From IMG/VR virus record IMGVR_UViG_3300045988_177198: DNA of 64,000 nucleotides; one strand, given 5' to 3'. The notes beneath the pieces were generated by a model, which did not search any database, was not told the origin of the DNA, and was given only the letters and a program-made list of their open reading frames with translations. The stretch comes from a virus. Made by a program: the position numbers and the translations under genes. Shown in pieces: positions 7,300-54,640 of this stretch. Numbering within the stretch: the stretch's first letter is position 1; each line of letters starts with the position of its first letter.

Positions 7300-7407
7300 C
7301 TGTGTTTTAGAGAAACCAATGGGGCGTCCGCTCTGTTGTGAGTGTCGCCCCATCTGGAAAACTCCGGTGAAGTCTTTTTGTTCATCCGAATATTAATATA
7401 CCGGAGC

Positions 7408-7863: not shown

Positions 7864-7893
7864 GATTGCCTACTTACTCCCCTGCTCCTGTTT

Positions 7894-8556
7894 TTATTCT
7901 TCCACCAGATTGATTTCAGACAGATAGTCGATGAGTTCCTGCACGACGCTGGAATATTCCTTGTTGTCGATTTCGGTTGTGCCGTACATGTTCTTGACGG
8001 CTTCACGTTCCGTGATGACGGTTTCGAACCGTGCGATGCCTTCCTCATCCAGTTCGCTGATGCTGTTCCGGGCGAGTTTCGTTCTCGGCTTCACGCGTGT
8101 CAACAGGACGATGCCGTTGCGTGCCGCCGCGTATGTGCGTCCCGCGTGGGTCAAATCGGATACGGATGGCTGGCATGGGATTATCACCACGTCGCCCGCG
8201 TTTATCGCCGCCTGCACCACTCCCGCGTCGGACGGTGGGGTGTCGATGATGACCCAGCCTGAATATTTTTCGCGGATGAGTTCCGGATTGTTCAATACGG
8301 CTTCGTTGGTTTGCACGACGGGGAAGCCGAGCGTGTATGGTTCCGCGTCCGGATTGTCCTGTCTGCGTCTGCGGTTTTCCTGTTCGACGTACATTTCCCA
8401 CATGGTCGCGCCGCCCGTGTTGTCGGAGTCCAAGACTGTGACTTGTTCCCCGCGTTTGTGCAATAGTTCGGCCAATGCCATTGATGTGGTTGTTTTTCCT
8501 GAACCGCCTTTGATGATTGCGACGGTGATGATGACCGTATGGTTTTTGACTCTCAT
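7894..8556 (-). CDS. parA: ParA/Soj-family partition ATPase
   Basis: Deviant Walker A 'IIKGGSGKTT', Walker A' and B motifs; start moved to internal Met (MRVKNH) at 8556 with AAAGGA RBS; track ORF extends to 8790. Confidence 0.8.
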   Translation of the reverse strand: MRVKNHTVIITVAIIKGGSGKTTTSMALAELLHKRGEQVTVLDSDNTGGATMWEMYVEQENRRRRQDNPDAEPYTLGFPVVQTNEAVLNNPELIREKYSGWVIIDTPPSDAGVVQAAINAGDVVIIPCQPSVSDLTHAGRTYAAARNGIVLLTRVKPRTKLARNSISELDEEGIARFETVITEREAVKNMYGTTEIDNKEYSSVVQELIDYLSEINLVEE

Positions 8557-8651
8557 GTTCTGGTTTCCTTTTTCTGCTTCCGGTGTGGACGGAATCATGG
8601 TGGGGGTATGTCTTTTTGTTTCGATGATAACAACGGCGAAAAGTCGGCACG

Positions 8652-8801
8652 CCGAACCAGAAAACCGTTCGGAGAAACATTCCAGTAAAACAGTTGAACG
8701 GCGTACAAGTTTACAGGCGGAACAGAAAAACAGAAAGCCGCGTCCGCGATGAAACGGATACGGCCTTCTTTCGTTTTTACCGCCGAACAAAAATCATTCG
8801 G
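8652..8801. promoter_or_regulatory. two CCGAAC-N7/9-(G/A)TTCGG palindromes upstream of parA (candidate par operator/centromere)
   Basis: ccgaaccagaaaaccgttcgg (~8652-8672) and ccgaacaaaaatcattcgg (~8783-8801) in the 237-bp parA upstream region. Confidence 0.3.
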
Positions 8802-9147
8802 TAGCGGTGAACACCAGTTTGCGAAGGAACTCCATGAACAGTGAACCGATATCAGGCATCTGGGCCGCGATATCCTTCATCCATTCACGCACGGGCAAAC
8901 CCATGACCTCCAAGACACCGGTGATAATCCACACGAACAACAGGAACGCGCAGATGGTCAACGCGGTCATCAACGCGCGGGTGCTTTTCTGCAAGATTGC
9001 GAACACGACACTACCGGCGCAAATAATAATCATCAACAAAGTGAGGATTGCGCCCGTCGGTGTGAACACCCAAGAGAAGAACACAGTGAGCACGTCACCC
9101 AACGTTCGTCCCGCAGTGTCAGCGGCTTGGTTTCCTACCTCTTCCAT
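8794..9147 (-). CDS. small polytopic membrane protein (T4SS accessory?)
   Basis: 117 aa, 3 predicted TM helices; last gene of transfer operon. Confidence 0.4.
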   Translation of the reverse strand: MEEVGNQAADTAGRTLGDVLTVFFSWVFTPTGAILTLLMIIICAGSVVFAILQKSTRALMTALTICAFLLFVWIITGVLEVMGLPVREWMKDIAAQMPDIGSLFMEFLRKLVFTATE

Positions 9148-25908: not shown

Positions 25909-26460
25909 ATGGTCGAAGACACCGTCTGCACCATCGGCGTATATGGTGGCCGACAACCGTCTATACTCGTCAACAACCATCTCGTCTACGGTCGGATGCC
26001 CGACTCCGAAACCCAGCCGGACATCATCGCGGACGTTCCGAAGAACAGGCTCGTTGCCAACCTCAACCCAGCCTCCGACGGCATGACGGACAGTCCCAGA
26101 CTTCCGTTGGAACTGTTCGCCGCATGGCTCGCCAACGGTGACGTGGGCATCAGCTCGCTCGCCATCGTCCAACGGCTCACCGGAATCACAATGACCGTGA
26201 ACGGCACGCGCAAACATGGTTGCGAGGACACTCCGAAAGACCCCGGAGACCTACGTCGGATACTCGGAATGTTCGACATGGTGCCAGTCGCACGTGCCTA
26301 TCTGAGTCTCATGCGCGATGTGTCGGACGATTGGAAAACCATCATCGACCATTGGGACGAACTCGAAAAACAGTATCGGAAAGAGGAACACAATCCATCC
26401 GGTTGCGCCCCCAAAACCTACCGGATACTGAAACGATTGAAGGAAGGAAACCATGCCTAA
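25909..26460 (+). CDS. hypothetical protein
   Basis: 183 aa. Confidence 0.45.
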   Translation: MVEDTVCTIGVYGGRQPSILVNNHLVYGRMPDSETQPDIIADVPKNRLVANLNPASDGMTDSPRLPLELFAAWLANGDVGISSLAIVQRLTGITMTVNGTRKHGCEDTPKDPGDLRRILGMFDMVPVARAYLSLMRDVSDDWKTIIDHWDELEKQYRKEEHNPSGCAPKTYRILKRLKEGNHA

Positions 26461-28216
26461 CAAAGACATCAAAACCGAACCACGGTTCATGACCATGATT
26501 CAGAAAGACCTCCTCCCGACATGCAAGGCGTTGAATCTCGACGTTGACCCGTTCGCCAACGCGCGAACCGTGTTCATCGACCGTGACAGCGTGGGACGGA
26601 TTCTCTCCTACATGAGCGACCATGAAATCAACCCCGAATGGTACGGCCTCCTGCCTGATAATCTGTTCGTCGGAACCGGACTGCCGGTACTCACCGGCGT
26701 CGAAGGAGAATACTTCGCCCGTATGACCGGACGGAACCTCACCAAGAAAGTCGCGGCGAAAACATTCATCGCGGACATGGAAGCCTACTGGCTGAGCAAG
26801 GACAATCTGAAACGGACTGACGGTACGAAAGGCAACGGAACCACGCTCGGTTTCGGACGTTGCCCCGGACTACGCGAAGCCAGCCGATACAACGAACGCA
26901 TCTTCAAAAGCAACGAATACGAGTACACGAATCCCGTGGACGAGTATGGCATCGACACTGTTTCACGTTACCGTCAGGTTGGTGAAATCTACAATGAGGT
27001 CGGACAATGCTTCAAGGGAATGGCACAGGCGAGTACTCCCCTCGCACCATTCGTCTTCCTCACCCATAAGGAATACGAGGGCGGACTGGACACGGTTGTG
27101 AACCACTGCCCATACATCACCCATTCGGACGCCACCCGCATCATCGACGGGATGAGACAGTTCCCTCCGAAACGAAGCGTGGACAGGTTCATGCTCGCGT
27201 TCACCATGACCGCGTTCGCGTTCGCCATGAATCAGGTCGAGGAATCCGAACAGTACGAGACGGTCGAAGTGAAACCACCGAAAACCGAAATCAGACGGCA
27301 TTCCGGCGCTCCGAAAACCACGTTGCTTATCCATTTGAAACCGGAAGAGCCAGCACCCAAGGCCACGCCATCCTACGCCGGTGAAACCGACGAATACGAT
27401 TGGGACAGCATCACCGGACGGGTTGAAACCATCACCCCGGACGTTGCCAAGGAAATGCTCGGCGTGAACACCAACAACCGCAACGTGAGCCGCACACAGG
27501 TCGAACTGTTCGCCCGAACCATGGCGCAGAAGGCTTGGAAAATGAACGGCGAAGCCATCAAATTCAGCAACACGGGACGCTTGTTGGACGGCCAGCACAG
27601 GCTCCTCGCATGCGTCGAATCCGGTGTTCCGTTCCGCACTCTGGTCATTCGCGGACTGCCCGAAGACACGCAGGAGACCATGGATGCAGGCAAGAGCCGC
27701 ACCATGGCTAACGTGCTCGAACTGAAAGGCCGTAACAACGCCAAACAGCTTTCCACCGTGGCCCGTTCCATCTATCTGAGCGAACAGTTGGGTGTGGAAG
27801 CCGCATGCGTCAACAACATGTCACCGACCCGAAATGAACTGCTGACGTTCATCGAAAGCACTCCGCAATTGGAGGATACGCTACGACAGGCCAGCACGTT
27901 CTACACGAAAAGCAATCATCTCATGTCCACCAGCATGGCCGCGCTCCTCTACTGGACGTTCAACGAAATCGACGGTGAGGCGTGCGAACGGTTCTTCGAC
28001 ATGCTCGCCTCCGGCGCTAACCTTGACGAGGGAAGCCCCATTCTCGTACTCCGCAACACGCTGTTCGATATCAATAAGCGTGGAGCGCACAGCGACCGTC
28101 CAACCCGCCGACGCATCGTCGGAATCACCATCAAAGCGTGGAACAAATGGCGTGGGGGAGCGACTGTGAAACTCCTCAAATTCTCTCCGAACGAACAGTT
28201 CCCGGACGCAATCTGA
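26453..28216 (+). CDS. ParB/Srx-superfamily DGQHR-domain protein (DndB-like/ParB-like nuclease domain)
   Basis: 587 aa; 'GRLLDGQHRLLA' motif at aa ~385 matches the DGQHR/ParB N-terminal domain signature. Confidence 0.55.
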   Translation: MPNKDIKTEPRFMTMIQKDLLPTCKALNLDVDPFANARTVFIDRDSVGRILSYMSDHEINPEWYGLLPDNLFVGTGLPVLTGVEGEYFARMTGRNLTKKVAAKTFIADMEAYWLSKDNLKRTDGTKGNGTTLGFGRCPGLREASRYNERIFKSNEYEYTNPVDEYGIDTVSRYRQVGEIYNEVGQCFKGMAQASTPLAPFVFLTHKEYEGGLDTVVNHCPYITHSDATRIIDGMRQFPPKRSVDRFMLAFTMTAFAFAMNQVEESEQYETVEVKPPKTEIRRHSGAPKTTLLIHLKPEEPAPKATPSYAGETDEYDWDSITGRVETITPDVAKEMLGVNTNNRNVSRTQVELFARTMAQKAWKMNGEAIKFSNTGRLLDGQHRLLACVESGVPFRTLVIRGLPEDTQETMDAGKSRTMANVLELKGRNNAKQLSTVARSIYLSEQLGVEAACVNNMSPTRNELLTFIESTPQLEDTLRQASTFYTKSNHLMSTSMAALLYWTFNEIDGEACERFFDMLASGANLDEGSPILVLRNTLFDINKRGAHSDRPTRRRIVGITIKAWNKWRGGATVKLLKFSPNEQFPDAI

Positions 28217-31393: not shown

Positions 31394-31572
31394 CCTGTTC
31401 AGGGGCATGTTGGAGGGTATGGGAAGCCATGCCCTCCTTATTTTTAAGGGCTGAAAGCGTTCTTTCAAGGTTTTTAATGAGGGTGCTTGCGGTATATTAG
31501 GAATGTAATCCGATATTGACCCTGTTCGATGAATGAACGTGCGCCGGGTCTAGTAAGGAAAGGAAAACAAAG

Positions 31573-33300
31573 GTGAAAACCAAAAACCTGTTGAAGGCAA
31601 CGGTCGCCACGCTTGTGGCCGGTGCCATGGGTTTGGCTGGAGTCGGCTCCGCCATGGCTGATACCACGCGTATCAGCGCTGAGGATTTGGCGAAGAATCA
31701 GACGTTGACGGTTGAGGCTAATGGTGATATTAGCAATCGCACGTTGAAGGCTGTGCCGCTCGCCTACTATTCGTATGCGCAGACTGATGGCACTGATAAT
31801 ATCACCGGCTTTGACCTGATTGACGCGGGCAAGGCTTCTGCTATCGCTGACGCATTGACTAAAGCCAATATTGACACTAAGTCCAAGAAAGACCAGACCG
31901 CCGGATACGACTATGATGCGTCCAATCCGATGGTGTGGGTCGTGCAGAATCTCCTTGATTCCGAGGACAGGCCGTGGGCTGGCAAGCTTCGTGACTTCAT
32001 CGACCAACTGAAGAACGAGGCCGCCGTGACCGACGATAATGGCACCAAGTTCATCGCTACCCCGGACGATAATACCGAGCAGACCGCGTCCGTCCGTCCG
32101 GGCGTGTACGCGGTCGTGGACACCACCAAGACCGGTCAGGCGTCCATCGTCATGTTCAACGGCACCGGCATCGACGGCAAGACCACGTTGAAGAACGGCA
32201 ACAAGCCCTACACGCTGCTGGGCACCGTGTCCTATAAGGTGCATGACGCTAGAGTCGCCAAGGCTATCACCTCTGTTGAGAATGGTGATGTGGATGAGAA
32301 AATCACTGGGGATGAGGATGGGCCACGTCAAGCAGGGGAGGAACAGTATGCGGTAGCCAAGACCTCCATCGGCAAGAAGGTCTCTTTCAAGATGGCCAGC
32401 TGGGTGCCTGTGTGGACTGGCTACGACCATTACTATTATGCGCTCAACGATACGTATTCGGATGGTCTGACGTTCAACGCGGATAGTGTGAAGGTCACTG
32501 TCGGTGGTAAGGCTTTGACTGCTGGCAAGGATTACAAGGTGACGACCGAGACGGGCAAGTTCCATATCCTGTTCGCCCCGACCGCTGATGGTTCTTCCGA
32601 CATCATCGCCGCCAAGACCACGTTCCCGGTCGATGCGGAAGTGCTTGTCACTTATAACATGACCGTGAACAAGAACGCCCACGTGGACGGTGTTGACACC
32701 AACACGAGCGAAGTCGAATACTCCCACAATCCGAACAACGTCACCGACCATCAGAAGACTCCGGGCAACACCAACTACGTGTACGTCGGCAAGTTCACTC
32801 TGACCAAGACCGATACGAACAACGCTCCGCTCGCGGGTGCCGTGTTCAACATCAAGGACGCCAAGAACAATATCGTCAAGTTCGTCAAGGTGAAGGATAA
32901 CGAGTATCGTGTCGCCGACTCGACTGAGGCCGCTACCGCAAGCGCCGACATCACCACCGCCGATAAGAACAATGGCGTCATCACCTTGAAGGGCATGTAC
33001 GGCGCCTACACGGTGACCGAAACCAAGAGTCCGTTCGGCGGCAGCATTCTGCCGGAGTTCACTCTGACCGTTGGCGTGGCCCAGTCCACAGACCATAACA
33101 CCAGCACTTCGTCCCTCACCGCATTCGGACAAGATTCGAACAAGCTGGCCTCCAAGACCGGTGACGATGGAGTGACCGTCATCAACGCCCGCAACATCGC
33201 TGACATGCCGAAGACCGGTGCGGTCTGGCTGTCCATCTTCGGCGTGATGACCGTCCTGTTGGCTGGCGCTTCCGCCCTGCTGCTTCGTCGCAAGGCGTGA
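31573..33300 (+). CDS. sortase-dependent major pilin (SpaA/FimA-type)
   Basis: Signal peptide, E-box 'YTVTETKSPFGG', C-terminal sorting signal 'MPKTG' plus hydrophobic helix plus 'RRKA'. Confidence 0.8.
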   Translation: MKTKNLLKATVATLVAGAMGLAGVGSAMADTTRISAEDLAKNQTLTVEANGDISNRTLKAVPLAYYSYAQTDGTDNITGFDLIDAGKASAIADALTKANIDTKSKKDQTAGYDYDASNPMVWVVQNLLDSEDRPWAGKLRDFIDQLKNEAAVTDDNGTKFIATPDDNTEQTASVRPGVYAVVDTTKTGQASIVMFNGTGIDGKTTLKNGNKPYTLLGTVSYKVHDARVAKAITSVENGDVDEKITGDEDGPRQAGEEQYAVAKTSIGKKVSFKMASWVPVWTGYDHYYYALNDTYSDGLTFNADSVKVTVGGKALTAGKDYKVTTETGKFHILFAPTADGSSDIIAAKTTFPVDAEVLVTYNMTVNKNAHVDGVDTNTSEVEYSHNPNNVTDHQKTPGNTNYVYVGKFTLTKTDTNNAPLAGAVFNIKDAKNNIVKFVKVKDNEYRVADSTEAATASADITTADKNNGVITLKGMYGAYTVTETKSPFGGSILPEFTLTVGVAQSTDHNTSTSSLTAFGQDSNKLASKTGDDGVTVINARNIADMPKTGAVWLSIFGVMTVLLAGASALLLRRKA

Positions 33301-37300: not shown

Positions 37301-39731
37301 GCAGACCGTCAAAACGGTGAAGACCGACAAGGACGGCTACTACGAGTTCAACCTGCTCCACTCCGGCACCTACCGTACTTCGGTGAAACGCAACACTGGC
37401 ACCAGTACGGGTGATGGCGTACAGACGCAAGTCAAAACCTACTACAACAAGCTCGAAAACGTGACGAACACGCGCAGCTGGTCGAACAAAATCAAGTCCA
37501 ACGCGAAAGACACGTCCGACGACATCCACCTAGGCATCGGCGCAGACCAGAAAAACGTGGACTACGGGTATGCGAAACCAGACCCGAAAGCCACCGTGGA
37601 CAAAACCGTCACCGGCACCAGCTGCACCGACACGAAATGCGTCATCAACTGGGATGTCAAAGTACAGAATTCTGGCACTAGCCGTTTTGACACGTCCAGT
37701 GTCGTTTCTGACCGTATGAGCGCTGATGTGCATGATGTTTCCGCTACCGCCGGTACGGTTTCCATCGAATCTGGTGGCGCGAAGCAGGTTGCGACGAGTG
37801 GCGACCATAAGTTTGTGTTGACGAACGAGGGCTTGTTGTATGCGTGGGGTAACAACCAGTATGGTCAATTAGGTTTCAAGCCTGACACGACGAATACCGC
37901 TACCCCAACGAACGTGAACAAGCCGACCATCGTGAACGGTAGTTGGCTGAAAGTCGCCGCCGGTGGCAAACACTCCGCCGCCATCAGCACGGACGGCCAC
38001 TTGTACACGACTGGTTGGAACGGTAAAGGCCAATTGGGTACGGGTGATACGGATAATCGTGACCAGTGGACTCTAGTCGCAGAAGATAAGACGTTTGTTG
38101 ACGTGGCGTGCGGCAACCAGTTCACTGTGGCGATAGCAAGTGACGGCACCTTGTGGGTGGTCGGAAAAGTCAGTTCCACCTCGTATTCAACGTGGACGCA
38201 AATCCAGTCGGGTAAGACGTTCACGCAGGTCAGCGCCAGCACGTACAGGTGGGTCGCGTTGACGTCCTACGGCGGTTGTGTGGTGGACGGCGACGAGTTT
38301 TTCTCTATTGGTTTCACGCAAGTTGTCGCCTCATTCGGCAACGCCTACGGGTTGACTGACGCGGGTACAGTGATAGTGCTCGTCGGCGGAGGTGATAGCG
38401 GTATCGACCAGTCCAATGTGTCTAATCTGAGGTACATCACCCGTATCGGTGTCGGATACAACACTTTCTACGCCATCGACAAGAACCAACACTTGTGGGC
38501 GGCTGGCTGGAATGGTGACGGCCAATTAGCGAACGGTAAGACCGGTACAGGCAGGTATTGGACCAACGGCAGTACGAGCGGCAACGCGGATATTGTTTCC
38601 ACGCCAATCGATACGGGCATTACCGCATCCGACGTTGCGGGCGGCGACCGTGACGTGCTCATTGTCGGCAAGCAGGTCATGATTGCGGGCTTCGACCCGT
38701 ATGGTGACGGCAAGACGGGTGGCGCACGTTCCACCGGTTTGAAGGGAATGGTCGTATCGTCCGACCCGACCGCCGTACCGGTCGAACCGTTGAGCGAGTC
38801 CACGGAGAAGGGGTTGACGACACGCACGTACAATCTGCCATACGGTATTGAACCGGGAGGCTACGTCATCTACCATTTCACCGGCACCGTTGACCGTGAC
38901 ACGACGGACACGACCAAGTGGACGGACGAACAAATCAGCACATGGGTCAAGGAGCATACGAAGACCATCCTCAATCAGGCATGGTTCGACTCCGAACACA
39001 CGCCATATTCGGGCACGCCGCACGCGAACGGTAAAACCACGCCGGACAATCCGGACGCGTCCAAACTGGAATCGAACACCAGCGACGTGACCGGCAACAT
39101 GACATGCCGCACCGACTCGGACTATGCGGAGGATGGACGCCAACACTGGTTCAGCACCGGTGATGAGGACTCCTGCGACCAAGTCGGCACCACTATCACC
39201 CCGACCGCCAGCGCGAAGAAGCTCGGCACCATCAGCGGACTCTACTGGGAGGATACTGACAAGGACGGAGTCAGAAGCGACAGCGAATCGAAACGGTTCG
39301 CCAACCAGACCGTAATTCTCTATGACAAGGACGGCAAGCAGGTGGCATCCACCAAGACCGACAAGGACGGCAAGTACAAGTTCGAACACTTGGACGCGGA
39401 CGGCGACCAGTACACCATCCAATTCAGCCGCGTCACCCACCAAGAGTTCACCAAGCCGGATGCGAACGACATGGACATTCCGAATGACGCGAGTTCCACC
39501 GACTCCGACGCGAACACGAGCGACGACAAGTACGGTGAATCCACGTTCACCATCATCCTCACACAGGATAAGCCGGACAAGGAGAATGTGGACGCGGGCG
39601 TCCTACCAGAAACATGGATGATGAGCATGCCCCACACCGGCATGGGCTTACTGTTGCCAATCCTCATACTCGTCAGCATTCTGGGACTCGTCACCGCAAT
39701 CATCCTGTTGAGAAAGGAAGACCGTAAGTGA
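34341..39731 (+). CDS. giant sortase-anchored pilus tip adhesin with RCC1-like beta-propeller and SdrD-B/CnaB-like domains
   Basis: 1796 aa; signal peptide; repeated 'GxNxxGQLG' RCC1 blades (aa ~1150-1400); two 'WxDxDxDG...DGxYxF' B-type domains; sorting signal 'MPHTG' plus TM plus 'RKEDRK'. Confidence 0.85.
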   Translation: MSILKKHVAHPVALLAAIATLASGLTCMTNPVASPKAHADELKPAYATAKIVKKADGTGHGTSSQTFVNSKNGFATGDDSPTDGVVASGDTVEYSLTLNFNAAGKRTINVKFDLDDAPYLQTVDGGGFCQPGQLVTAKKNSDGSCSYTVPAGGVETMTQTFYLKAKDTGGLVKPGQIPKIVVAREGGTSTTYRTDELTVVSAPAADLVIDNGGNPVKGQYSYEHRTYWSQNTDATGDFTIRADALTYPGYSSTKGASTSIDWTTKVDISDFPQGTVWTVGGQRITRNSDKEQYLTVSSGKNGAAATISYRIPAGTDALKNMKEGDVKYYDVHLVPDETVFSVKDDNGDALLNMGKGGEPGWNIGRDKSTYDKDTGARVGYPYANNDWSRAIIQRLKPTPAGKIPLFGKGLQRPNTASKTMFDKENLTFDAAEGKADIYHYYSDGSGDTVSRRTQVKTILEMYAANVTADKLKNTTPTMQDEWDNTRMRWDGSLEVTQNGAPVSDYKVQWADSRDNWHDGEPSDTDAPNVKKIRVTFNPDTLTLGKGAPNVQVTFNTLAIADVSKGNVEALDTLTAWLTEDDKASVTNWVWIAKPVDPTTSIDISLKAYDGEGNQVYANNSSNHPSGSAVDLTPGMRVDYTVTEQLRTILLSNTSMTPTITVPKPKGLYNPTCDDSFWQMKVDGNNLVFTPRSGKVTPEVDRMGSATLPDLHFSGIVSNLATGTVTASANMSVDVDENGALQAQTIKSNTPSVPFPVSNAETNSGIMRVKTTKAEIGDPLTWEFNVYGKGDGHTGTMDSMLLLPANGDEKYVQDKLVEYERGYSNYHGSYELTQPVTVNMDNSTSTTVYYSTTTGKKSDNPADYEWKTWDELSATEKKNITAIRLTSTVVASDDKLSYSAVNGTITLTPSDNVKDDKYTLWLGRNYYSDASDKPAGNQPWPDVAKVVAGSISGAVWWDKDENTLIGDNEEHIEGVEVTLGKQDSSGGWQTVKTVKTDKDGYYEFNLLHSGTYRTSVKRNTGTSTGDGVQTQVKTYYNKLENVTNTRSWSNKIKSNAKDTSDDIHLGIGADQKNVDYGYAKPDPKATVDKTVTGTSCTDTKCVINWDVKVQNSGTSRFDTSSVVSDRMSADVHDVSATAGTVSIESGGAKQVATSGDHKFVLTNEGLLYAWGNNQYGQLGFKPDTTNTATPTNVNKPTIVNGSWLKVAAGGKHSAAISTDGHLYTTGWNGKGQLGTGDTDNRDQWTLVAEDKTFVDVACGNQFTVAIASDGTLWVVGKVSSTSYSTWTQIQSGKTFTQVSASTYRWVALTSYGGCVVDGDEFFSIGFTQVVASFGNAYGLTDAGTVIVLVGGGDSGIDQSNVSNLRYITRIGVGYNTFYAIDKNQHLWAAGWNGDGQLANGKTGTGRYWTNGSTSGNADIVSTPIDTGITASDVAGGDRDVLIVGKQVMIAGFDPYGDGKTGGARSTGLKGMVVSSDPTAVPVEPLSESTEKGLTTRTYNLPYGIEPGGYVIYHFTGTVDRDTTDTTKWTDEQISTWVKEHTKTILNQAWFDSEHTPYSGTPHANGKTTPDNPDASKLESNTSDVTGNMTCRTDSDYAEDGRQHWFSTGDEDSCDQVGTTITPTASAKKLGTISGLYWEDTDKDGVRSDSESKRFANQTVILYDKDGKQVASTKTDKDGKYKFEHLDADGDQYTIQFSRVTHQEFTKPDANDMDIPNDASSTDSDANTSDDKYGESTFTIILTQDKPDKENVDAGVLPETWMMSMPHTGMGLLLPILILVSILGLVTAIILLRKEDRK

Positions 39732-39742
39732 AAGGAACAAAA

Positions 39743-40711
39743 ATGGGCATGCACGCCAGTAACCGTGTGAACCGCCACTTGGGACAACGAATCCTCGCCA
39801 CCCTCGCCATCGTGGCGGCGGTCTGCGGCGGACTCATCACCGGTAGCGCCATCGCTTCGGAACCGGCCAAATGTTCGACCGGCGTGGACAAGGTCTGCTA
39901 TGCGGGCTACAACGCCGCAGGATTGAAGCAGATTGCCGACGATTTGAGCGACAAAGGCAAGGGAAGCTCCTACTATGCGGAAATGGAAGACAACCTTAAT
40001 AAAGGCACGCAAGGTTCGCTCACCCTATCGGACGGGTCTAACCTCCCGTTCAAACTCATCGGCATCCTCCACGACGACAAGGCCGACGGTAGCGGTAAAA
40101 AGGCTGGTTTGACGTTCATGGCGTGGAACTCGTTGCCGAAAGCGTACTGCATGAACGGAACTATGCCCAATGACAACACCACTACGTGTGCTTCTGACGG
40201 CTACACCAACAAAGGCGGATGGCGCGACAGCAACCTCCGCCAATGGATGAACACTGGGGAAATCTGGAACCAATTCCCCACCGACTTCCAAAACAACGTG
40301 ACCACCGTATTGAAGCAAACCAACAACATGTACTACGGAAACACTTCCGGCTCCGCCGCATCCGCCACAGCAGACAAGGTGTGGCTCGTCTCCTACAGGG
40401 AACTCGTACCAACCATATACGACGGGTGGAAAAGCTATAACGGTTTCCCAGCGTTAAGTCAGGAGGGAAGTCAATACGAGTATTTCCAAGGCAAGGTGAT
40501 GCACAACTATTCAAACAATAATATTCTGTCTGGAATCTACGAAACCGTTTCCGGTTCAGCGCCCTCCGGTGCCAGCTACTACTATTGGTGGGAGCGTTCG
40601 CCCTACCCGCGCTACAGCGACTCTTTCCTCCGAGTCTACTCGGGCGGCGACCCCAGCGACAGCAACAGTGCGTATTATCGCTTCTCCGTTGTCCCCGCTT
40701 TCTCCTTCTAA
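39743..40711 (+). CDS. secreted DGR target protein (variable C-terminal ligand-binding domain)
   Basis: Signal peptide with AIA|SE cleavage site; 3' 155 nt form the VR of the DGR; start at ATG 39743 with AAAGGAA RBS (track start GTG 39728). Confidence 0.7.
   Translation: MGMHASNRVNRHLGQRILATLAIVAAVCGGLITGSAIASEPAKCSTGVDKVCYAGYNAAGLKQIADDLSDKGKGSSYYAEMEDNLNKGTQGSLTLSDGSNLPFKLIGILHDDKADGSGKKAGLTFMAWNSLPKAYCMNGTMPNDNTTTCASDGYTNKGGWRDSNLRQWMNTGEIWNQFPTDFQNNVTTVLKQTNNMYYGNTSGSAASATADKVWLVSYRELVPTIYDGWKSYNGFPALSQEGSQYEYFQGKVMHNYSNNNILSGIYETVSGSAPSGASYYYWWERSPYPRYSDSFLRVYSGGDPSDSNSAYYRFSVVPAFSF
40545..40700 (+). other. DGR variable repeat (VR)
   Basis: ~156-nt repeat of 41334-41489 with ~20 mismatches, every one at a position where the other copy has A. 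Confidence 0.75.
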
Positions 40712-40712
40712 T

Positions 40713-40749
40713 CCCCCATCTTTAGGGGGTGGGGTTCATCCCCACCCCC
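40713..40749 (+). promoter_or_regulatory. GC-rich hairpins immediately 3' of VR (DGR homing hairpin candidate)
   Basis: cccccatctttaggggg and gggggtggggttcatccccaccccc stem-loops. Confidence 0.5.
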
Positions 40750-40777
40750 GCTAAAACATCACACGAAAGAAGCCCCT

Positions 40778-41299
40778 ATGACAGTACCCGCCAGCAAGCG
40801 GACAAAAGCAAAAAGCGAATATGCGAACCAAGCGAGAATCGTACTCTACGCCACCAGAAACCTCTTCCGGAAATGGCCCAAAAGCCGAGACAACATCGAA
40901 ACCATACACGTCATGCACATCGCCTACGACATGTACACAGCCGCCTACAGCGCCGACACCATCTACGCGAGCACCCTCGAAGAGCATAAGATGAAACTGC
41001 AACTCTTATGCAAGGCCCAAGGAATGCTGAACGCACTCTCCGGCCTCGTAGACGACTGGATAGACTATCCACCACGAGAACGCGACATGAAAGCCTACCA
41101 GAACAGTCAGGAAGGCGACCCCACCTACAATCCCGTAATCAAGGAGAAGAAATTTGTCAACTATGCGGGCACACTCTACAAAGCCATGGGAGTGTTCACG
41201 GGGGCAGTCCGATACGAGCGAGACCAGTTGAAGAAAGCCAAAACCGTCGAGTCAAAGACCACCACTAGAATGGATACTTGGGTTCAACCCCAAATATAA
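40778..41299 (+). CDS. Avd-like DGR accessory protein (predicted helical)
   Basis: 173-aa basic helical ORF located between VR and TR, the canonical position of avd. Confidence 0.45.
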   Translation: MTVPASKRTKAKSEYANQARIVLYATRNLFRKWPKSRDNIETIHVMHIAYDMYTAAYSADTIYASTLEEHKMKLQLLCKAQGMLNALSGLVDDWIDYPPRERDMKAYQNSQEGDPTYNPVIKEKKFVNYAGTLYKAMGVFTGAVRYERDQLKKAKTVESKTTTRMDTWVQPQI

Positions 41300-41333
41300 C
41301 TAAACAAAACCGGCCATATCCAAAATGGTGTTT

Positions 41334-41489
41334 CCGTTTCCGGTTCAGCACCCTCCGGTGCCAACAACAACAATTGGTGGGAGCGTTCGCCCAACCCGAA
41401 CAACAGCAACAATTTCCTCCAAGTCAACTCGAACGGCGACCCCAGCAACAACAACAATGCGAATTATCGCTACTCCGTTGTCCCCGATT
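41334..41489 (+). other. DGR template repeat (TR)
   Basis: AAC/AAT-rich copy of the VR; lies 190 nt upstream of the RT gene. Confidence 0.75.
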
Positions 41490-41681
41490 CCTCTTACCAA
41501 AAAACTAACATCAGATAGGCCAGTAGCCCAATGGGTGAAAGCCTCCCGAAGGGGAAGGGGATATGGTCGAATGCGCGGCCCCTCGAAAAATGGGTTGCGT
41601 GTGAAATAGGTTGAGGGAGATATTAAGACTGTCGGAAACGACGGATACTCGCCCCTTAAGCTGGGCGTCCAACATCATTGC

Positions 41682-42911
41682 ATGTCTTGGGTTGTTGCCG
41701 ACGACCTGCCCTCAACCATTCTTTTCTCTTTCCCTAGTGAAGGAAGCATTAAAATCGTGAATGCGAGTCAAAGACGTAGAAGACGCCAACGCAGACTGCA
41801 ACAACGCTCGGATGATAAGTACAGGAAGCTCCACCGTTACATCGACTTCCAACAAACATTCGGATTCGACGCGCTCTACCAAGCCGCAAGAAAATGCAAA
41901 CGCGGCGTCACATGGAAAAACACAGTGTTGAACTTCGACAATAGGCGTGCCGTCAACTGTTGGAAACTCGCCCAAGAATTAGAGGACGGCACATACAAGA
42001 AGAGAGCGCCAATCCGATTCGACATTTCCGAACGAGGCAAACTCCGCCACATCAGCGCGGTATCCTTCCGAGACCGGGTGGTGCAACGCGCCTTATGCGA
42101 CAACAGTCTCGTCCCCATCGTGGAAAGCCAACTGATATACGATAATGCGGCAAGCCTACCGAAACGTGGAACATCGTTCGCCCGAAAACGGTTCGAACTA
42201 CACTATAAGCGGGCTTTGGGCAAATGGGAGCATCCGTATGCTGTCATCTTCGACTGTTCCAACTATTTCGGAAGTATCAGCTCCCAACGAGCGTTCGATA
42301 TGATTTCCACCCTGTACCGGAGCATCGCCCGCACCGGACGGGAGAAGCAGGATGTGGAACGGATTCTAACCGTATTGAGAATCTTCGTATTGGACGAACC
42401 TCACTTGGGTTTAGGCAATCAGACAAGCCAAACCATGGCTATCTGGTATTTGAACAAGGTTGACCACTGGTGCATGTCGCAAGGATTCTACGGACGGTAT
42501 ATGGATGATGCCTACTGTTTCTGCAAGAATCGTGAACAGGCCGAACGTGTGCTGGCCGGTTACGAGCGGCATGTCAATCAATTGGGATTGCGGTTGAACA
42601 AGCGTAAGACCCGCATAGTGGACTGTCGCACCGGTCAACTCACATTCCTGAAACGCGTATACAGCGTACAGGATGACGGCAGTATTCTTATCCGCATGCA
42701 CCATAAGGCGTTGCGTGCAAGCCGACGGCATGCGCGTAACCTTATCCGCTCATATGATGGCGTGCATGTGGGATTGCGGACAGTTCAGGATTCTTGGACG
42801 AGCCATGAGAGCACACTGTCGGGTCTAACTCACCGTCGTGGACTGTGCGCTCGGGAGAAAGCGTGGTATCGGAGGCATTGTGGAATGCGGAAGCTGGCTT
42901 TTCACCCGTGA
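41682..42911 (+). CDS. DGR-type reverse transcriptase
   Basis: RT motifs 'RDRVVQ', 'IFDCSNYFGSI', 'GLGNQTSQ' (DGR-specific SQ) and 'YMDDAYCF'. Confidence 0.85.
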   Translation: MSWVVADDLPSTILFSFPSEGSIKIVNASQRRRRRQRRLQQRSDDKYRKLHRYIDFQQTFGFDALYQAARKCKRGVTWKNTVLNFDNRRAVNCWKLAQELEDGTYKKRAPIRFDISERGKLRHISAVSFRDRVVQRALCDNSLVPIVESQLIYDNAASLPKRGTSFARKRFELHYKRALGKWEHPYAVIFDCSNYFGSISSQRAFDMISTLYRSIARTGREKQDVERILTVLRIFVLDEPHLGLGNQTSQTMAIWYLNKVDHWCMSQGFYGRYMDDAYCFCKNREQAERVLAGYERHVNQLGLRLNKRKTRIVDCRTGQLTFLKRVYSVQDDGSILIRMHHKALRASRRHARNLIRSYDGVHVGLRTVQDSWTSHESTLSGLTHRRGLCAREKAWYRRHCGMRKLAFHP

Positions 42912-43180
42912 TTTCCGGACTTTCCAGATTGGTGGAGGGGTGTAATCTGCTGGAAGCGGTGGCGCAGAATCTTCCGCTTCCTCAATCGTTTGGATGAGAT
43001 TTCGTGAGGCTTGGATTGTATCGTATTTCACTCGGCATGCTTGTCGGCTAGTTTTTCTTCCCAGCTTGGTGTTACACTGGGTTTACTTGCATTTCCTTCC
43101 TCGGGACTTCGCCCATGTGGGGCTTTAGAGGTTATCAGCGCATTGGTCAGAGTATGCCGTTTGAGTGAAAGGAAACTGTC

Positions 43181-43792
43181 ATGGCAGGTTTTGATGATAT
43201 TACGGTCACTCGCAGTGATGTCCGTTTGAAGGTTAAGGCTCCGTATAATCCGTTGTTCGCACGTCGCTCCCGCGCGTTGGGTGGAACGTTTGATGACAAG
43301 TTGAAGACTTGGACGTTCGATATGCGTGTGGAAAGGCTGGTGTTCGAAGCTTTAGACAAATATTTCTGGTGGCATAAGGGCGTGGACGCTGAAAAGCGTG
43401 TCACAGTCACCATCGACCCCTACGACTACTTGTACGCGTACTCCAAGCAGGATAGCGACATTATCTGGTTCGCTGGTCGAATCCTAGTCGAAAAATATCA
43501 GCCCGACCGTCCACCGCGCATGATGCCGAATGTGGCTCTCGTGGATGGCATGTGGCCTAAAACCGGCTTGTATACGGGGTTGAATCTCAGTCCCGACAAA
43601 CTCCGATTATTGGTATGGGATGTTCCCACCAGTTTTCTGGAACGACTGTCGTCCGGCAAGTATGAGTTGTCTGAGCCGGATGGTGACACGTTGACTGCGG
43701 TTGACGTTCGTATTCAGGCTGTGGAGGAACGGTTAGGCCGGTTGAGGGAACTCCGAACCCGACTCGCCTCTAATAGTGAGGATGGTGAATGA
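43181..43792 (+). CDS. hypothetical protein
   Basis: 203 aa. Confidence 0.45.
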   Translation: MAGFDDITVTRSDVRLKVKAPYNPLFARRSRALGGTFDDKLKTWTFDMRVERLVFEALDKYFWWHKGVDAEKRVTVTIDPYDYLYAYSKQDSDIIWFAGRILVEKYQPDRPPRMMPNVALVDGMWPKTGLYTGLNLSPDKLRLLVWDVPTSFLERLSSGKYELSEPDGDTLTAVDVRIQAVEERLGRLRELRTRLASNSEDGE

Positions 43793-44796
43793 TGCTCTCC
43801 GTGCCGATTAATGGTCAAGTCCAGTCGCGTCTCATTCCGCCCACGTTCGTGGAAGACAACATCAGCGACATGTTCAAGGCTGTGGACGCCGGACACAATA
43901 TCGTCGTGACGGCAGTGGACGAGTACGGTAATCGAACCAGTATTACCACGCCGGATAATGTGAATCATGACATGCTGGGGCGTCCTCTCGAATTCGCGTC
44001 CCATCCCGTACTGATGCGGAATGTGCGCCGTTGGATGGTTTGGCTGTTGCAAGCGCAATACTGCAAGGATTACAAGTGGGATACGAACAGGCTTGGAGGT
44101 TGGATGGAAGTGTTGGGTTTACCAGCCGACCTTGATATTCCCGTAACGGAGGAACATTTACGCGTGTTGAAGCCTGTGTTTAACAAGGATGATGCCGACC
44201 CGTATCGGCTTGTCGCACGATACGACAAGCAACATTATGCTTCATGCACCCTCAGCACTCTCATACGGTTAGCCGAACAAACCACGCCGAACTATGCCCT
44301 GAACAATCCCGCCCGCTGGTGCCAAACCGACCGATACCGCAAACTCAGCATCCAACCCAATCCGAAAGAAAACTGGGACGGAATGGACAGGGTACGCGAC
44401 TGTTGGAGCGGATGCGAATGGGCATACCCCGCATTGGAACGCTACTATAATCCGATTCGACTATTACGCGACGAATACCGGCGGGGAGGACTACCTGAAA
44501 CCTTCCACTATCCAATACACACGACAAGAGGAGAATACCGGTTGGCGAAAGGACAAATCAGCCCCCACGCAACAATCCTCCTCAACGGCAAGCCGGTAGG
44601 ACTCATGTTCAGCGACGATTGCGAGGAACCATTCACCGACCGGATACCACCCGAATGGTGCGCCACACCCTTACCGGAAAACTATAAGACCACGCCACTC
44701 AACCGAAACATTCCCGTAAACGGCGAATTCAAACCATCATTCCAGCAAGCCATGCTGGGATTCGTGGAATGGTATGAGAAAACGCACAAGGGATAG
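43789..44796 (+). CDS. hypothetical protein (Trp/Cys-rich)
   Basis: 335 aa, 4-nt overlap with upstream gene. Confidence 0.5.
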   Translation: MMLSVPINGQVQSRLIPPTFVEDNISDMFKAVDAGHNIVVTAVDEYGNRTSITTPDNVNHDMLGRPLEFASHPVLMRNVRRWMVWLLQAQYCKDYKWDTNRLGGWMEVLGLPADLDIPVTEEHLRVLKPVFNKDDADPYRLVARYDKQHYASCTLSTLIRLAEQTTPNYALNNPARWCQTDRYRKLSIQPNPKENWDGMDRVRDCWSGCEWAYPALERYYNPIRLLRDEYRRGGLPETFHYPIHTTRGEYRLAKGQISPHATILLNGKPVGLMFSDDCEEPFTDRIPPEWCATPLPENYKTTPLNRNIPVNGEFKPSFQQAMLGFVEWYEKTHKG

Positions 44797-44803
44797 CAAA
44801 AAG

Positions 44804-44832
44804 AAAAGCCCCTCGACTGAGGGGCTTTTCAG
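44804..44832. terminator. bidirectional intrinsic terminator
   Basis: aaaagcccctc-gactga-gaggggctttt hairpin between convergent genes. Confidence 0.55.
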
Positions 44833-44902
44833 TAAATGTCACATGGTGTCGGGATTGAATTCTTCCAGCTTGTCCATGCTAAACCGCCCAGAACAACAAA
44901 AC

Positions 44903-46060
44903 CTAGTTCTCCGAGCGTTCGCTGATATTCTCCCGCATCTGCAAATAAGCCCCATGCTCACGCAAGTAATCCCGCAAATACGGCATTTTGAAAGCGACTT
45001 CACCGTAACCGACCGGCTCAATCAAATCGTTCTCAATCAGCTTGGTTCTATACACGTTGGCGAACTGTGGCGAACGGTTCAACCGACGGGCGATTTCACC
45101 TGTATTCGACACCGTATCATCCACCGACATGGCAAGTAGATAGTTCACCGCATGGGATGGCAAGCCATGCAATGCTGGGGCGTGAACCATATCCCCTAGT
45201 TTGGCTTGGGCTTTTTCGATACCCTTGACCGCGTCCTCCTCGGTCACTTGATTCACATGACCGTTGGTTTCGGACATCCGCCAAGCCCAATAGCCCACCA
45301 GCTGAATCATGAACGGATAACCGTGAGTGGCGTTGGTCAACCGTATCAGCGTTTCCATTCCGGCTTTCTTCTCGCCGCTGAAGGATTCCTCGAACGCCTT
45401 CAATACCTTTTCCGTGGGGACAGACCCCAAATGGTATCGTTCCGCCCGTTGCAGGAAAGTGATGGCATTGTCGGACAGCACGTCGTTCACTGCGGACGGC
45501 AGTCCGGCGAAAACGAACGCGATGTTCCGTCCTTCCCGGATGAGATGCTGCACTGCGGTGGACAGTGCTCTGATTTCGTCCATGGAACCGGACTGCACCT
45601 CATCCAATGTGATGAGGATTCCTTGTTTGGTCTCGTTCATTTTGTCCAATCGTTTTCCGACCGCTTGGCGGAGTGTCAGGGAACGTTCCTCATTATGTTC
45701 GAGTTCGATTCTCCCTAAGCTCAGTTCAAGATTCCCGACGTCCCCTTTCAATCCTACTTTGGGCATGTCGTATGCGGATATGCGGGTGGTGTCCTTGCCG
45801 GTGAGCGCGTCCACGAGTCTTCGGGTGAAGCCTTTGTCGGCGCTTTCGTTGTAGATTTGCCAACCTTGTTTTTGGGCGTGCTCTCCCAGTGTGTCCAGCA
45901 TGACTGTTTTGCCGACTCCTCTGGCTCCTGTGAGGAACATCAGCCGTCCGGGGCTTCCCACACCGTCTTTCAGCGCATAGTCGAAGTCTTCGATGATTTC
46001 TTCTCGTCCGACGAGTATCGGTGGGATACGTCCGGCGGTTGGTTTGAATGGGTTGGTCAT
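44903..46060 (-). CDS. ATP-binding protein (AAA/archaeal-ATPase-like with C-terminal wHTH)
   Basis: Walker A 'GARGVGKT', Walker B 'ILITLDEV'; start at internal Met (MTNPFKP) with AAGGAAAC RBS. Confidence 0.65.
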   Translation of the reverse strand: MTNPFKPTAGRIPPILVGREEIIEDFDYALKDGVGSPGRLMFLTGARGVGKTVMLDTLGEHAQKQGWQIYNESADKGFTRRLVDALTGKDTTRISAYDMPKVGLKGDVGNLELSLGRIELEHNEERSLTLRQAVGKRLDKMNETKQGILITLDEVQSGSMDEIRALSTAVQHLIREGRNIAFVFAGLPSAVNDVLSDNAITFLQRAERYHLGSVPTEKVLKAFEESFSGEKKAGMETLIRLTNATHGYPFMIQLVGYWAWRMSETNGHVNQVTEEDAVKGIEKAQAKLGDMVHAPALHGLPSHAVNYLLAMSVDDTVSNTGEIARRLNRSPQFANVYRTKLIENDLIEPVGYGEVAFKMPYLRDYLREHGAYLQMRENISERSEN

Positions 46061-53029: not shown

Positions 53030-54640
53030 TCCCGTGATTCCTGTTGCCGGTCGGACGTGTCTTTCTTAATGTTTTTTAATGGAAGAGATTCCGACCGGTA
53101 TTGCAGGGGTTTGAGTTTCATCGACGTTGCTTCCCATCGGTTTTCACCAGTGTGGAAGCTTGTTGTCTCCACTCGTAGGCATCGTCCGTGCCTTCCGGTT
53201 CTAAAGCGCGGTTGAGAATGTTCTTGGCCGCGTTCACGTCGGCGTTCGCCTCATGTCCGCAATTGTGGCAGTGGAACTCCGCTTGGCTTTCACGGTTGTT
53301 CTTGTCGCAGTATCCGCAGACGTTGCAAATGCGTGACGTGTCATAGGCGGGTACCTGAACGAGTCGGGTTCCCGCAAGCTTGGCTTTGTATTCGAGACAA
53401 TGCAGGAGGTCAGTCCAACGGTTGGCGAGGATGCTACGGTTCAAACCGCTTTTCCTCTTCCGCCCATTGGGGAGATAATGTCCCGGATTGTCGGGGTCTG
53501 GTTTCGGTCGGACGCTTCGGCTCATGGCTTTCACGTTCAACCGTTCCATGGCGATGAAATCGTATTCCCGGACGAGCATGGTGGTCGTTTTGGCTATCCA
53601 ATCGTCCTTGCGATTGTCTATCCGACGTTGGATGCTCCGCATGGCTTGGAGAGTACGCTTGCGGCTTTTGGACGCGAATTTGGCGTTCCTGCCGCCACGT
53701 TTCTCGTTCGTCCTGTCCTGTCGGGCGAGCTTGCGTTGCAGACGCTTATACTCGTCCACTTCCTTCGCCGACGGTTGCAGCATGTCGAGGAACAGTCCAT
53801 CCGACGTGGCGAGGGTATGCACGCAACCCCTATCCAAACCGACCATCATACCGGTATCGGTTCGGATGATAGGGAGTGGACTATTGGTAAACACGAGTGT
53901 CCTGTTCGTCCAGTTCACCGCCACACTTGTATATTCACGAATGGGTTGGCTCACCCGCACGTGAATGGCGATACGCCAACGAGCCTCGTTCTCACCCTCA
54001 CGACGATACTGTCTCGGCACACTGCCCGTGATGACGACCACACCGGCACGCTTGCCCGTCCGATAATACAAGGCGTTACCGGTCTTCGACTGGTTACGCC
54101 AGCACACGAAATACTGAGGAGCCTTATGACGGGAACGGAAACCCGGAACCCGGCCACCACTGGTCTTCTTTCGTTTCAATCCGGCGAACCATCCCGTATT
54201 CTCGACACGTTCGCACGAGGAGAGGATAGGCGAGGGGATGCACGCCAGCCAAAGACAATCCAATCGTGCCTGACTGTCCTTGACTGCGGGCTTCACATCC
54301 GCGCCGCCCAAAGGCACGTCCACCCAAATACGCTCACGGGTTTCGACATCCTCCACGAGCCTACGCTGGGGACGATGCGCCCTATGCTGGTTGTACCGGC
54401 TTCTCCACCCGTCGCACAACCAGTCCATGATACGTTCCGGACTACGAGTCCACATACGATTCCCGTAAGAGTCCAAGCCGAGGAACACACTGCACCCCGC
54501 ATGCCGGACTTTCAGGATTCGTACTTTTTGGCTCATACCAATATGATACCATATACCTTGAGTAATCAACAAAAAACACGCATAGCGTGCAAACCCGGCA
54601 TTAAAATACCGGGCTTATACGCAACAAAACCGTCAAGGTC
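53030..54640 (-). mobile_element. IS200/IS605-family (IS1341-like) insertion sequence carrying only tnpB
   Basis: tnpB plus right-end hairpin ccggtcgga...tccgaccgg (~53045-53098); ends approximate; no tnpA present. Confidence 0.45.
53118..54536 (-). CDS. tnpB: TnpB (OrfB) RNA-guided nuclease/transposase accessory protein
   Basis: RuvC-like motifs, C-terminal zinc finger 'CNVCGYC...CHNCGHEANADVNAAKNIL'; start at Met 13 (MSQKVRIL). Confidence 0.85.
   Translation of the reverse strand: MSQKVRILKVRHAGCSVFLGLDSYGNRMWTRSPERIMDWLCDGWRSRYNQHRAHRPQRRLVEDVETRERIWVDVPLGGADVKPAVKDSQARLDCLWLACIPSPILSSCERVENTGWFAGLKRKKTSGGRVPGFRSRHKAPQYFVCWRNQSKTGNALYYRTGKRAGVVVITGSVPRQYRREGENEARWRIAIHVRVSQPIREYTSVAVNWTNRTLVFTNSPLPIIRTDTGMMVGLDRGCVHTLATSDGLFLDMLQPSAKEVDEYKRLQRKLARQDRTNEKRGGRNAKFASKSRKRTLQAMRSIQRRIDNRKDDWIAKTTTMLVREYDFIAMERLNVKAMSRSVRPKPDPDNPGHYLPNGRKRKSGLNRSILANRWTDLLHCLEYKAKLAGTRLVQVPAYDTSRICNVCGYCDKNNRESQAEFHCHNCGHEANADVNAAKNILNRALEPEGTDDAYEWRQQASTLVKTDGKQRR

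Follow-up and report, generated by a model that had tools for sequence, protein, structure and literature searches.

The diversity-generating retroelement (DGR) of Bordetella phage BPP-1, the prototype of its kind, is arranged as mtd-avd-TR-brt: a target gene with a C-terminal variable repeat (VR), an accessory gene, a template repeat (TR), a spacer and a reverse transcriptase (RT) gene. We found the same order of parts in IMG/VR record IMGVR_UViG_3300045988_177198, a stretch of 64,000 nt that we call the window and whose numbering is used for all positions below. An earlier reading of these letters without database searches (the original prediction) had proposed a complete DGR in canonical gene order with a hairpin 3′ of VR, and our analysis supports that proposal. 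We consider it highly probable that the window holds a complete canonical DGR (target, accessory gene, TR, spacer RNA and RT), that its carrier is a megaplasmid-like element of Bifidobacterium from the human gut, and that it rewrites a lectin encoded by the last gene of a pilus operon. The likeness to BPP-1 also covers adenine-specific mutagenesis, an AAC-rich TR, a variable protein with a predicted C-type-lectin (CLec) fold, a fixed difference at the 3′ end of VR resembling the initiation of mutagenic homing (IMH) site, and a GC hairpin downstream of VR. However, the window element is cellular and apparently plasmid-borne rather than phage-borne, and its target is a predicted secreted protein rather than a tail-fibre tip. 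Its accessory protein has 173 residues and no detectable Avd sequence similarity, its hairpin has a 5-nt loop (TTCAT) and lies about 13 nt past the stop codon, and its spacer of about 190-270 nt has a conserved structure of its own.

The Bacteroides pilus DGRs resemble this locus in another way: they belong to human-gut commensals, are cellular rather than viral, accompany a pilus operon carried by a horizontally mobile element, have a C-terminal CLec VR, and show diversification in human metagenomes. Their variable protein is the lipoprotein tip pilin of a Gram-negative type V pilus, whereas the window encodes a sortase-dependent Gram-positive system with a separate, secreted DUF6273 protein that has no sorting signal; their vehicle is an integrative and conjugative element, and here it is a megaplasmid relative. 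The study describing them is silent on Bifidobacterium, sortase and Gram-positives. DUF6273 itself is an already described C-type-lectin-like DGR target in gut phages (PMC10743442), including at the Toutatisvirus hotspot (bioRxiv 10.1101/2024.10.15.618418). Those systems share with ours the Pfam family, a CLec-like fold, the position of VR at the C-terminal end of the domain, and some relatives that retain the target without the DGR; they differ in that the phages use the target as a structural or receptor-binding protein, in many cases joined to immunoglobulin-like domains, whereas ours stands alone, is predicted to be secreted and belongs to a bacterial adhesin operon. A sortase-anchored IgA protease likewise has DUF6273 at its N-terminus, in a paper that assigns no function to the domain (PMC12402451). 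Treponema denticola TvpA and Thermus aquaticus TaqVP are cellular DGR variable proteins with solved structures, but they belong to the formylglycine-generating enzyme (FGE)-sulfatase/DUF323-type family and not to DUF6273; TvpA is a lipoprotein, and neither lies in a pilus operon.

With regard to the vehicle, the closest described elements are the conjugative megaplasmids of the pMP7017 family in B. breve and B. longum (PMC10832533, PMC8313286). The best matches of the window's DnaB (52-54% identity) and of its 886-aa type IV coupling protein (T4CP)-like ATPase (59%) are in this family, the window has RepA_C and ParA genes as well, and related contigs reach 185-217 kb. In contrast, the characterised megaplasmids in PLSDB have neither this RT (best plasmid match 30%) nor any DUF6273 target, and the transcriptome paper on pMP7017 makes no mention of an RT, a DGR or a plasmid-borne sortase pilus. 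Full-text literature searches returned no paper joining DGR, sortase and pilus, and none joining megaplasmid, Bifidobacterium and retroelement, while large DGR catalogues do record that Bifidobacterium DGRs exist. The setting appears to be undescribed. Since the mechanism is canonical and the target domain a known one, the step forward concerns context and biology rather than kind; what is noteworthy is the sortase-pilus operon, an Actinomycetota-restricted accessory family that cannot be recognised as Avd, and the existence of natural derivatives that have no RT.

An ungapped local alignment pairs VR with TR over 156 nt at an offset of 789 and with zero gaps, at the two intervals that the original prediction had picked out by eye (about 40545-40700 and 41334-41489). 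The copies differ at 22 positions and TR has an A at every one of them, with G (10), T (9) or C (3) on the VR side. As adenines make up 43 of the 156 TR bases, the probability of this arising by chance is P = 3e-15 (hypergeometric). The manual alignment had already suggested an A in TR at every mismatch, which the computed one bears out in full; its estimate of about 20 differences was slightly low, and the 22 include one fixed difference, at 40698, that is taken up below. The claim that TR is built almost entirely from AAC and AAT codons was overstated: read in frame, 16 of its 52 codons specify Asn (12 AAC, 4 AAT). The diversified codons are nearly all of the AAC/AAT type in TR. Identity between the repeats breaks off abruptly 5′ of 40545, and the mutagenised part of VR is 40561-40683. 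On the 3′ side, beyond 40700, mismatches lose their A-specificity (T/C, C/T, T/A, T/C), which points to a boundary element there. VR occupies codons 268-320 of the 322-codon target gene, at the extreme C-terminus as had been proposed. TR is non-coding, and the RT gene starts 192-267 nt downstream of it. No second VR was found in the window when both strands were scanned at full and half length with the A positions of TR masked.

The same pattern recurs in related loci from public assemblies (L-numbered here), whose RTs are 99, 97, 80, 67 and about 50% identical to that of the window. Eight independent TR/VR pairs, those of the window and seven further lineages, hold about 163 mismatches, all but 2-3 of which fall on TR adenines. 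Where a lineage has acquired a non-A change in TR, the change reappears in its cognate VR (GGTTCAGC vs GGCTCAGC vs GGTTCCACTCCTCTT; also AGCAAC vs AGCGGC and CCCAAC vs CCCGAC), which demonstrates a transfer of information from TR to VR. Loci L004 and L005/L006 have the same TR and VRs that are unlike only at A sites, and near-identical elements (RT 98-99%) likewise hold different VRs above the same or nearly the same TR.

The diversification of VR is massive and directly visible at the population level in these assemblies. Across 79 target homologues, mean entropy is 2.67 bits at codons templated by a TR adenine vs 0.70 bits elsewhere. The 90%-identity cluster of the target contains 1229 distinct sequences, and that of the RT holds 930 sequences. 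In 15 sampled members of the target cluster, 22 of the 23 A-templated codons vary, with residues from the AAC repertoire (D/G/H/N/S/Y/C/R/I/F/L) and a mean of 4.8 types per codon, and outside these codons 28 of 299 positions vary. An identical RT is present on a 135,849-bp human-gut metagenome scaffold (ERZ28659586). Several short related contigs stop inside VR or TR, and in one member of the target cluster (P0274) the C-terminus is the translated TR plus its downstream flank (…ANNNNWWERSPNPNNSNNFLQVNSNGDPSNNNNANYRYSVVPDSSYQKTNIR), most likely an assembly chimera that collapses VR onto TR. Both the truncated contigs and such a chimera are expected because the repeat is hypervariable.

The gene that receives this variation gives a single Pfam match, to DUF6273 (E 1.6e-18), and no other Pfam domain. 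Its AlphaFold2 (AF2) model, built from the 79 homologues, has a predicted local distance difference test (pLDDT) score of 83 and adopts a C-type-lectin fold that displays the VR residues, as CLec- or Ig-fold variable proteins of DGRs do. The protein is probably secreted through a Sec signal peptide: residues 1-37 have a pLDDT below 50, a basic n-region precedes a hydrophobic core, and A36, A38, E40 and P41 around the AxA|SE site are unchanged in all 79 homologues, in keeping with the AIA|SE cleavage that had been predicted. We also considered the protein as a lipoprotein with Cys28 as its lipidation site and rejected this: homologues do not conserve the cysteine, it follows a Val at −1, and the AxA|SE site does not vary. 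Translation could alternatively begin at a GTG at 39728, which overlaps the stop codon of the preceding adhesin gene. The C-terminus (...VVPAFSF) has no sorting motif, transmembrane segment or pilin domain, and the protein as a whole has no LPXTG-type signal, pilin motif or Cna-B/SpaA domain of the kind that marks sortase-pilus subunits. It is therefore not a pilin, and any association with a pilus would have to be non-covalent.

Where VR ends on its 3′ side, the target gene closes with 27 nt (40685-40711) that differ from the end of TR (41474-41500) at fixed positions without A-specificity. Every related locus has the same differences, even in lineages with 67% RT identity, which is how an IMH/IMH* pair should behave. 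The mismatch at 40698 (C in VR, A in TR) behaves in the same way: it is found in every related locus, and the residue it affects, 319, is invariant in the 79 homologues. We therefore count it as a fixed IMH/IMH* difference, so that mutagenesis accounts for 21 of the 22 mismatches. By analogy with BPP-1, the two segments may act as an IMH/IMH* pair, and the sequence has both this asymmetry and a hairpin downstream of it. The original prediction had placed two GC-rich stem-loops 3′ of VR, only one of which stands. The hairpin at 40725-40749 begins 13 nt past the target stop codon and is kept in seven of the seven related loci that cover the site (L002-L008), with an invariant loop and a compensatory change (GGTGG/CCACC) in L002 and L003; it persists even in the RT-less chromosomal locus of B. 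moukalabense (L020). No T tract follows its stem. The other candidate, a ccccc/ggggg stem (40713-40717/40725-40729), is not conserved in L003 or L007 and was rejected.

The region between TR and the RT gene appears to specify a structured, Sp-like RNA. Sequence blocks within its core are kept across five lineages, in which the helices 41571-41576/41597-41602 and 41667-41677/41680-41692 also covary; compensatory changes affect 10 of the 35 predicted pairs, and the covariation score is 0.347 vs 0.04-0.11 in slid controls with shifted partners. At gathering thresholds, a search of the whole window assigned no Rfam family to this RNA, and a tRNA scan of the whole window returned nothing. The spacer also bears on where the RT begins. 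The original prediction had used 41682, the mechanical start of the open reading frame (ORF), but this ATG falls within one of the conserved, covarying helices, whereas a GTG at 41757 is preceded by a GAAGGA Shine-Dalgarno sequence and agrees better with the RT homologues. The upstream ATG is thus probably an artefact of ORF calling and the GTG the true start.

DGR-clade RTs carry [I/L/V]GxxxSQ where other RTs have a QG motif. The translated RT of the window has this signature (GLGNQTSQ) together with YMDD, RDRVVQ and IFDCSNYFGSI, all four of which had been singled out beforehand. Among PDB structures it is closest to the Bordetella phage bRT (8ub7, E 3e-13); in the alignment, R74 and I181 of bRT correspond to the R of RHISAV and the L of LGNQTSQ, and YMDD is conserved. 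The protein also matches PHROG 1423 (E 5e-57), and its best annotated plasmid matches by tblastn are RTs that adjoin an annotated avd and FGE-family targets. Motifs and closest relatives hence support a DGR-type RT, as the original prediction had it. The cassette DNA had no near-identity match among PLSDB plasmids and INPHARED phages, a single-RT scan of species-representative genome contigs found nothing, and a rescan of the species-representative genomes with an RT alignment found no close relative, the best being 52% identical (on a 9.4-kb contig binned as Ruthenibacterium) and the next 39% (Gordonibacter). Two further RT homologues, L016 (1095-2225) and L017 (5081-6391), are 47% identical and have no recognisable TR within 560 nt upstream; they may be rearranged or orphan DGR RTs. 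In L016, a SpaA pilin and a sortase (6041-9116) lie 4-7 kb downstream of the RT homologue.

Between VR and TR, in the position of avd, lies an ORF for a basic protein whose AF2 model has helices at residues 14-31, 39-60, 67-96 and 119-166, with a variable loop before the last. Canonical Avd is a PF05635-type four-helix bundle, basic and pentameric. The original prediction had called the ORF Avd-like, and its position, size, basic character and four predicted helices agree with this, but homology to Avd could not be demonstrated. There was no Pfam match to Avd in 19 family members, nothing significant for Avd homology in PDB with phmmer or a family profile, and no significant hhalign result for two family alignments against three annotated Avd proteins (P 0.04-0.12). 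These last alignments are colinear and place an RKWPKSR loop opposite the RFPKxxRF loop of Avd, which is no evidence of homology. Foldseek lists a pentameric bundle, 2gsc, with a target-normalised TM-score of 0.77 among generic four-helix bundles at E >0.01. Possibly the protein is a very divergent Avd. Its family is small (27 cluster representatives in 1.84 billion proteins) and accompanies the RT in all site-covering Bifidobacterium relatives and in Coriobacteriia relatives (Gordonibacter, Atopobiaceae). In the latter, represented by Gordonibacter faecis and an Atopobiaceae metagenome-assembled genome (L022, 8951-9469; L028, 9168-9638), the RTs are 35-39% identical, the shared non-Pfam accessory family has the pattern MSVPKxKR…LPKRW…GAIKxxR, and the DUF6273 targets are fused to large surface proteins. 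The features of the locus are collected in Table 1.

Table 1. Positions of the DGR parts and of the pilus operon in the window (aa, residues).
Feature	Position	Strand	Remarks
Backbone pilin gene, 575 aa, first of operon	31573..33300	+	Pfam GramPos_pilinBB E 5e-19, SpaA
Sortase gene, 301 aa	33436..34341	+	Pfam Sortase E 3e-21
Surface adhesin gene, 1796 aa	34341..39731	+	Pfam WD40_RLD E 4e-47, RCC1, SdrD_B, SpaA
DGR target gene, 322 aa, DUF6273 / predicted C-type-lectin-fold variable protein	39743..40711	+	
Predicted Sec signal peptide, aa 1-38, cleavage AIA|SE	39743..39856	+	basic n-region and hydrophobic core
Variable repeat (VR)	40545..40700	+	22/22 mismatches vs TR at TR adenines
IMH-like 3′ boundary of VR, TCCGTTGTCCCCGCTTTCTCCTTCTAA	40685..40711	+	fixed non-A differences vs TR end
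GC-rich hairpin/cruciform, GGGGGTGGGG-TTCAT-CCCCACCCCC	40725..40749	+	10-bp stem, loop TTCAT
Accessory gene in avd position, 173 aa, isoelectric point 9.4	40778..41299	+	predicted four-helix bundle
Template repeat (TR), non-coding	41334..41489	+	43 adenines, 16 in-register Asn codons
IMH*-like TR counterpart, TCCGTTGTCCCCGATTCCTCTTACCAA	41474..41500	+	
Putative spacer (Sp-like) non-coding RNA, TR to RT	41490..41756	+	conserved core 41517-41695
Reverse transcriptase gene	41682..42911	+	Pfam RVT_1 E 3e-13; probable start GTG 41757 (384 aa)

If the element works as its homology with BPP-1 suggests, an RNA covering TR and the spacer would be transcribed, and the RT, probably together with the basic four-helix accessory protein, would reverse-transcribe TR and misincorporate opposite template adenines. 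The cDNA would then replace VR, directed there by the conserved GC hairpin together with the IMH-like boundary. This would rewrite about 21 codons, most of them with AAC or AAT as template, on the ligand-binding face of the Sec-secreted DUF6273 lectin-fold protein. The likely role of this rewriting is the rapid change of a specificity, for adhesion or for ligands, that is tied to a surface apparatus.

Bifidobacteria rank among the key colonisers of the gut in early life, and that their sortase pili contribute to colonisation is established. Continuous rewriting of a pilus-operon lectin by a retroelement would mean rapid adaptation of host- or glycan-binding specificity, on a megaplasmid-like carrier that is widely distributed to judge by the 90% clusters of its RT (930 sequences) and target (1229). 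Pilus adhesins diversified by DGRs on mobile elements, a theme described recently in the Gram-negative Bacteroides, would also be extended to Gram-positive commensals.

The apparatus in question is the operon of pilin, sortase and adhesin that precedes the target gene. A terminator-like site (31412-31437) lies just upstream of the pilin gene and none between the genes of the operon; the target gene begins 11 nt past the stop codon of the adhesin gene, which the original prediction had described as abutting. The adhesin combines an RCC1-like β-propeller with SdrD_B, SpaA and Cna-B-type domains and may form the tip. Such a propeller is unusual in a pilus-operon adhesin, and the sorting-signal-like tail of the protein (39620-39731) is atypical as well, with MPHTG, a hydrophobic or transmembrane segment and RKEDRK in place of a canonical LPXTG signal. 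The order pilin, sortase, RCC1 adhesin and DUF6273 protein is kept in L003, in L007/L008 (RT 67% identical, with adhesin stop and target start overlapping), in two Bifidobacterium pseudocatenulatum contigs of 185-194 kb (L018/L019) and on the B. moukalabense chromosome (L020), where housekeeping genes flank the module. In B. pseudocatenulatum (L018/L019, 10891-11500), a clean 4-kb deletion corresponding to window positions 40936-44951 has removed most of the accessory gene, TR, the RT gene and two ORFs downstream of it. At the B. moukalabense locus (10780-11300), all that remains is VR, the hairpin, the accessory gene's first codons and the 3′ end of TR. This repeated loss of the RT cassette marks the DGR as an old partner of the pilus operon that has been lost again and again, leaving a frozen lectin behind. 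Both derivatives, which come from cultured species, are ready-made natural controls with a frozen VR.

Two overlapping ORFs directly 3′ of the RT gene (43181-43792 and 43789-44796, +; 203 and 335 aa), whose sole match is a weak one to phrog_18108, occur in the 99%-identical relatives but not in L003, L004 or L007, and were deleted together with the RT in L018.

Several observations weigh against a diversified pilus lectin on a conjugative megaplasmid. The targets that persist in B. pseudocatenulatum and B. moukalabense without an RT cassette imply that the lectin functions undiversified and that the DGR is dispensable. The evidence for diversification is at the population level and does not amount to ongoing activity in this sample or strain. 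As the target has neither an LPXTG-type sorting signal nor any pilin motif, its covalent incorporation into the pilus is excluded, and an association with the pilus of any other kind is a matter of speculation. In sequence, the accessory protein shows no significant similarity to Avd, and by fold it matches nothing beyond generic four-helix bundles. The 64-kb window yielded no recognisable relaxase or VirB4. Lastly, IMG/VR classes near-identical contigs as viral.

The first of the alternatives takes the DGR to be real and independent of the pilus, its product being a free secreted or cell-surface lectin whose position reflects operon hitch-hiking or the history of island insertion. We treat this as a serious contender, although we slightly disfavour it. 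Although the target has a predicted signal peptide, it lacks an LPXTG-like motif, a transmembrane anchor and pilin domains, and DUF6273 occurs in unrelated settings, in phage tentaclins and Mtd-like proteins and in the IgA protease (PMC10743442; PMC12402451); moreover, in the Coriobacteriia relatives the domain is fused to other large surface proteins rather than joined to a pilus operon. On the other hand, lineages as distant as 63-67% identity, on megaplasmids and chromosomes alike, retain the four-gene order, and adhesin and target are separated by 11 nt or overlap at stop and start, with no terminator-like site between the genes. The synteny thus suggests a link to the pilus. The original prediction of a hypervariable secreted or pilus-associated ligand-binding protein therefore holds for the hypervariability and the operon linkage, while the pilus association may be read from conserved gene order in a protein with no sorting signal. 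One could go further and imagine a Gram-positive counterpart of the Bacteroides pilus DGRs, in which the lectin docks non-covalently on the pilus or the RCC1 adhesin as an exchangeable hypervariable tip, travels on a conjugative megaplasmid and relies on an Actinomycetota-restricted accessory protein in place of Avd. This extended picture is possible but rather doubtful.

It is unlikely that the DGR is quiescent here or a decaying relic, with a VR that is now effectively frozen and differences that record past activity. Such an outcome would fit the repeated decay seen in relatives (the 4-kb deletion in B. pseudocatenulatum, the remnant in B. moukalabense), a shortened RT call of 328 aa in L003, and the report that many Bacteroides DGRs are quiescent in vitro (bioRxiv 10.1101/2024.11.15.621889). 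It fits less well with the window itself, where every part is intact (the RT ORF with YMDD, the accessory ORF, TR, the spacer core, the IMH-like end and the hairpin) and TR still has its 43 adenines. Near-identical elements with RTs of 98-99% identity differ in VR over the same or nearly the same TR, and related contigs end within VR or TR, as a heterogeneous repeat predicts.

We find it very unlikely that the element is borne by a jumbo phage or phage-plasmid and that the variable protein is a receptor-binding protein, the role it has in most DUF6273 DGRs. IMG/VR does file as viral five contigs (L101-L105; 13-217 kb, four of them 111-217 kb) that carry a near-identical element with an RT of 98-99% identity, DUF6273 targets and the best PHROG family of the RT are phage-associated (PMC10743442), and an ORF just upstream of dnaB (26453-28216, +, 587 aa, no Pfam domain) matches phrog_5931 at E 4e-69. 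Against this, no phage terminase, portal, capsid or tail gene was found among the large ORFs scanned in the window, and megablast gave zero matches in the phage collection. The window instead encodes RepA_C, two ParA-like ATPases, DnaB and the T4CP-like ATPase, the last two with best matches in pMP7017-family megaplasmids, and the same pilus-DUF6273 module sits between housekeeping genes of a Bifidobacterium chromosome. As no phage structural genes turned up among the scanned ORFs, a mis-filed megaplasmid is more likely than the alternative, an unrecognised phage-plasmid. The original prediction had named a conjugative replicon. Genes for replication and partition and for a T4CP-like ATPase are there, no relaxase was identified, and the 54-59% identity to pMP7017-family genes suggests that the replicon may be conjugative.

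That the RT is of another class (group II intron, retron or Abi/DRT) and the repeat pair a coincidental duplication is a negligible prospect, since, although the top NCBIfam score is to a group II intron RT/maturase model (E 9e-25) and weak Drt matches occur too, all scores lie far under the curated cut-offs (group II intron 87.5 vs 300, Drt4 42.8 vs 450, retron 25.9 vs 235 bits), the Rfam search of the window found no group II intron or retron RNA, bRT is the best structural relative and LGNQTSQ is present, and the A-only mismatches (P 3e-15) recur in eight lineages.

Elsewhere in the window, an ORF at 3121-4146 (−) has a GmrSD_C restriction-endonuclease domain (E 1e-6) and may be a defence gene of the plasmid backbone. 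A TnpB/IS605 OrfB-type gene at 53118-54572 (−) matches Pfam OrfB_IS605 and a Cas12f1-like TNB domain; its homologues occupy other positions in L004 and L018, which suggests that an insertion sequence is active on this family of replicons.

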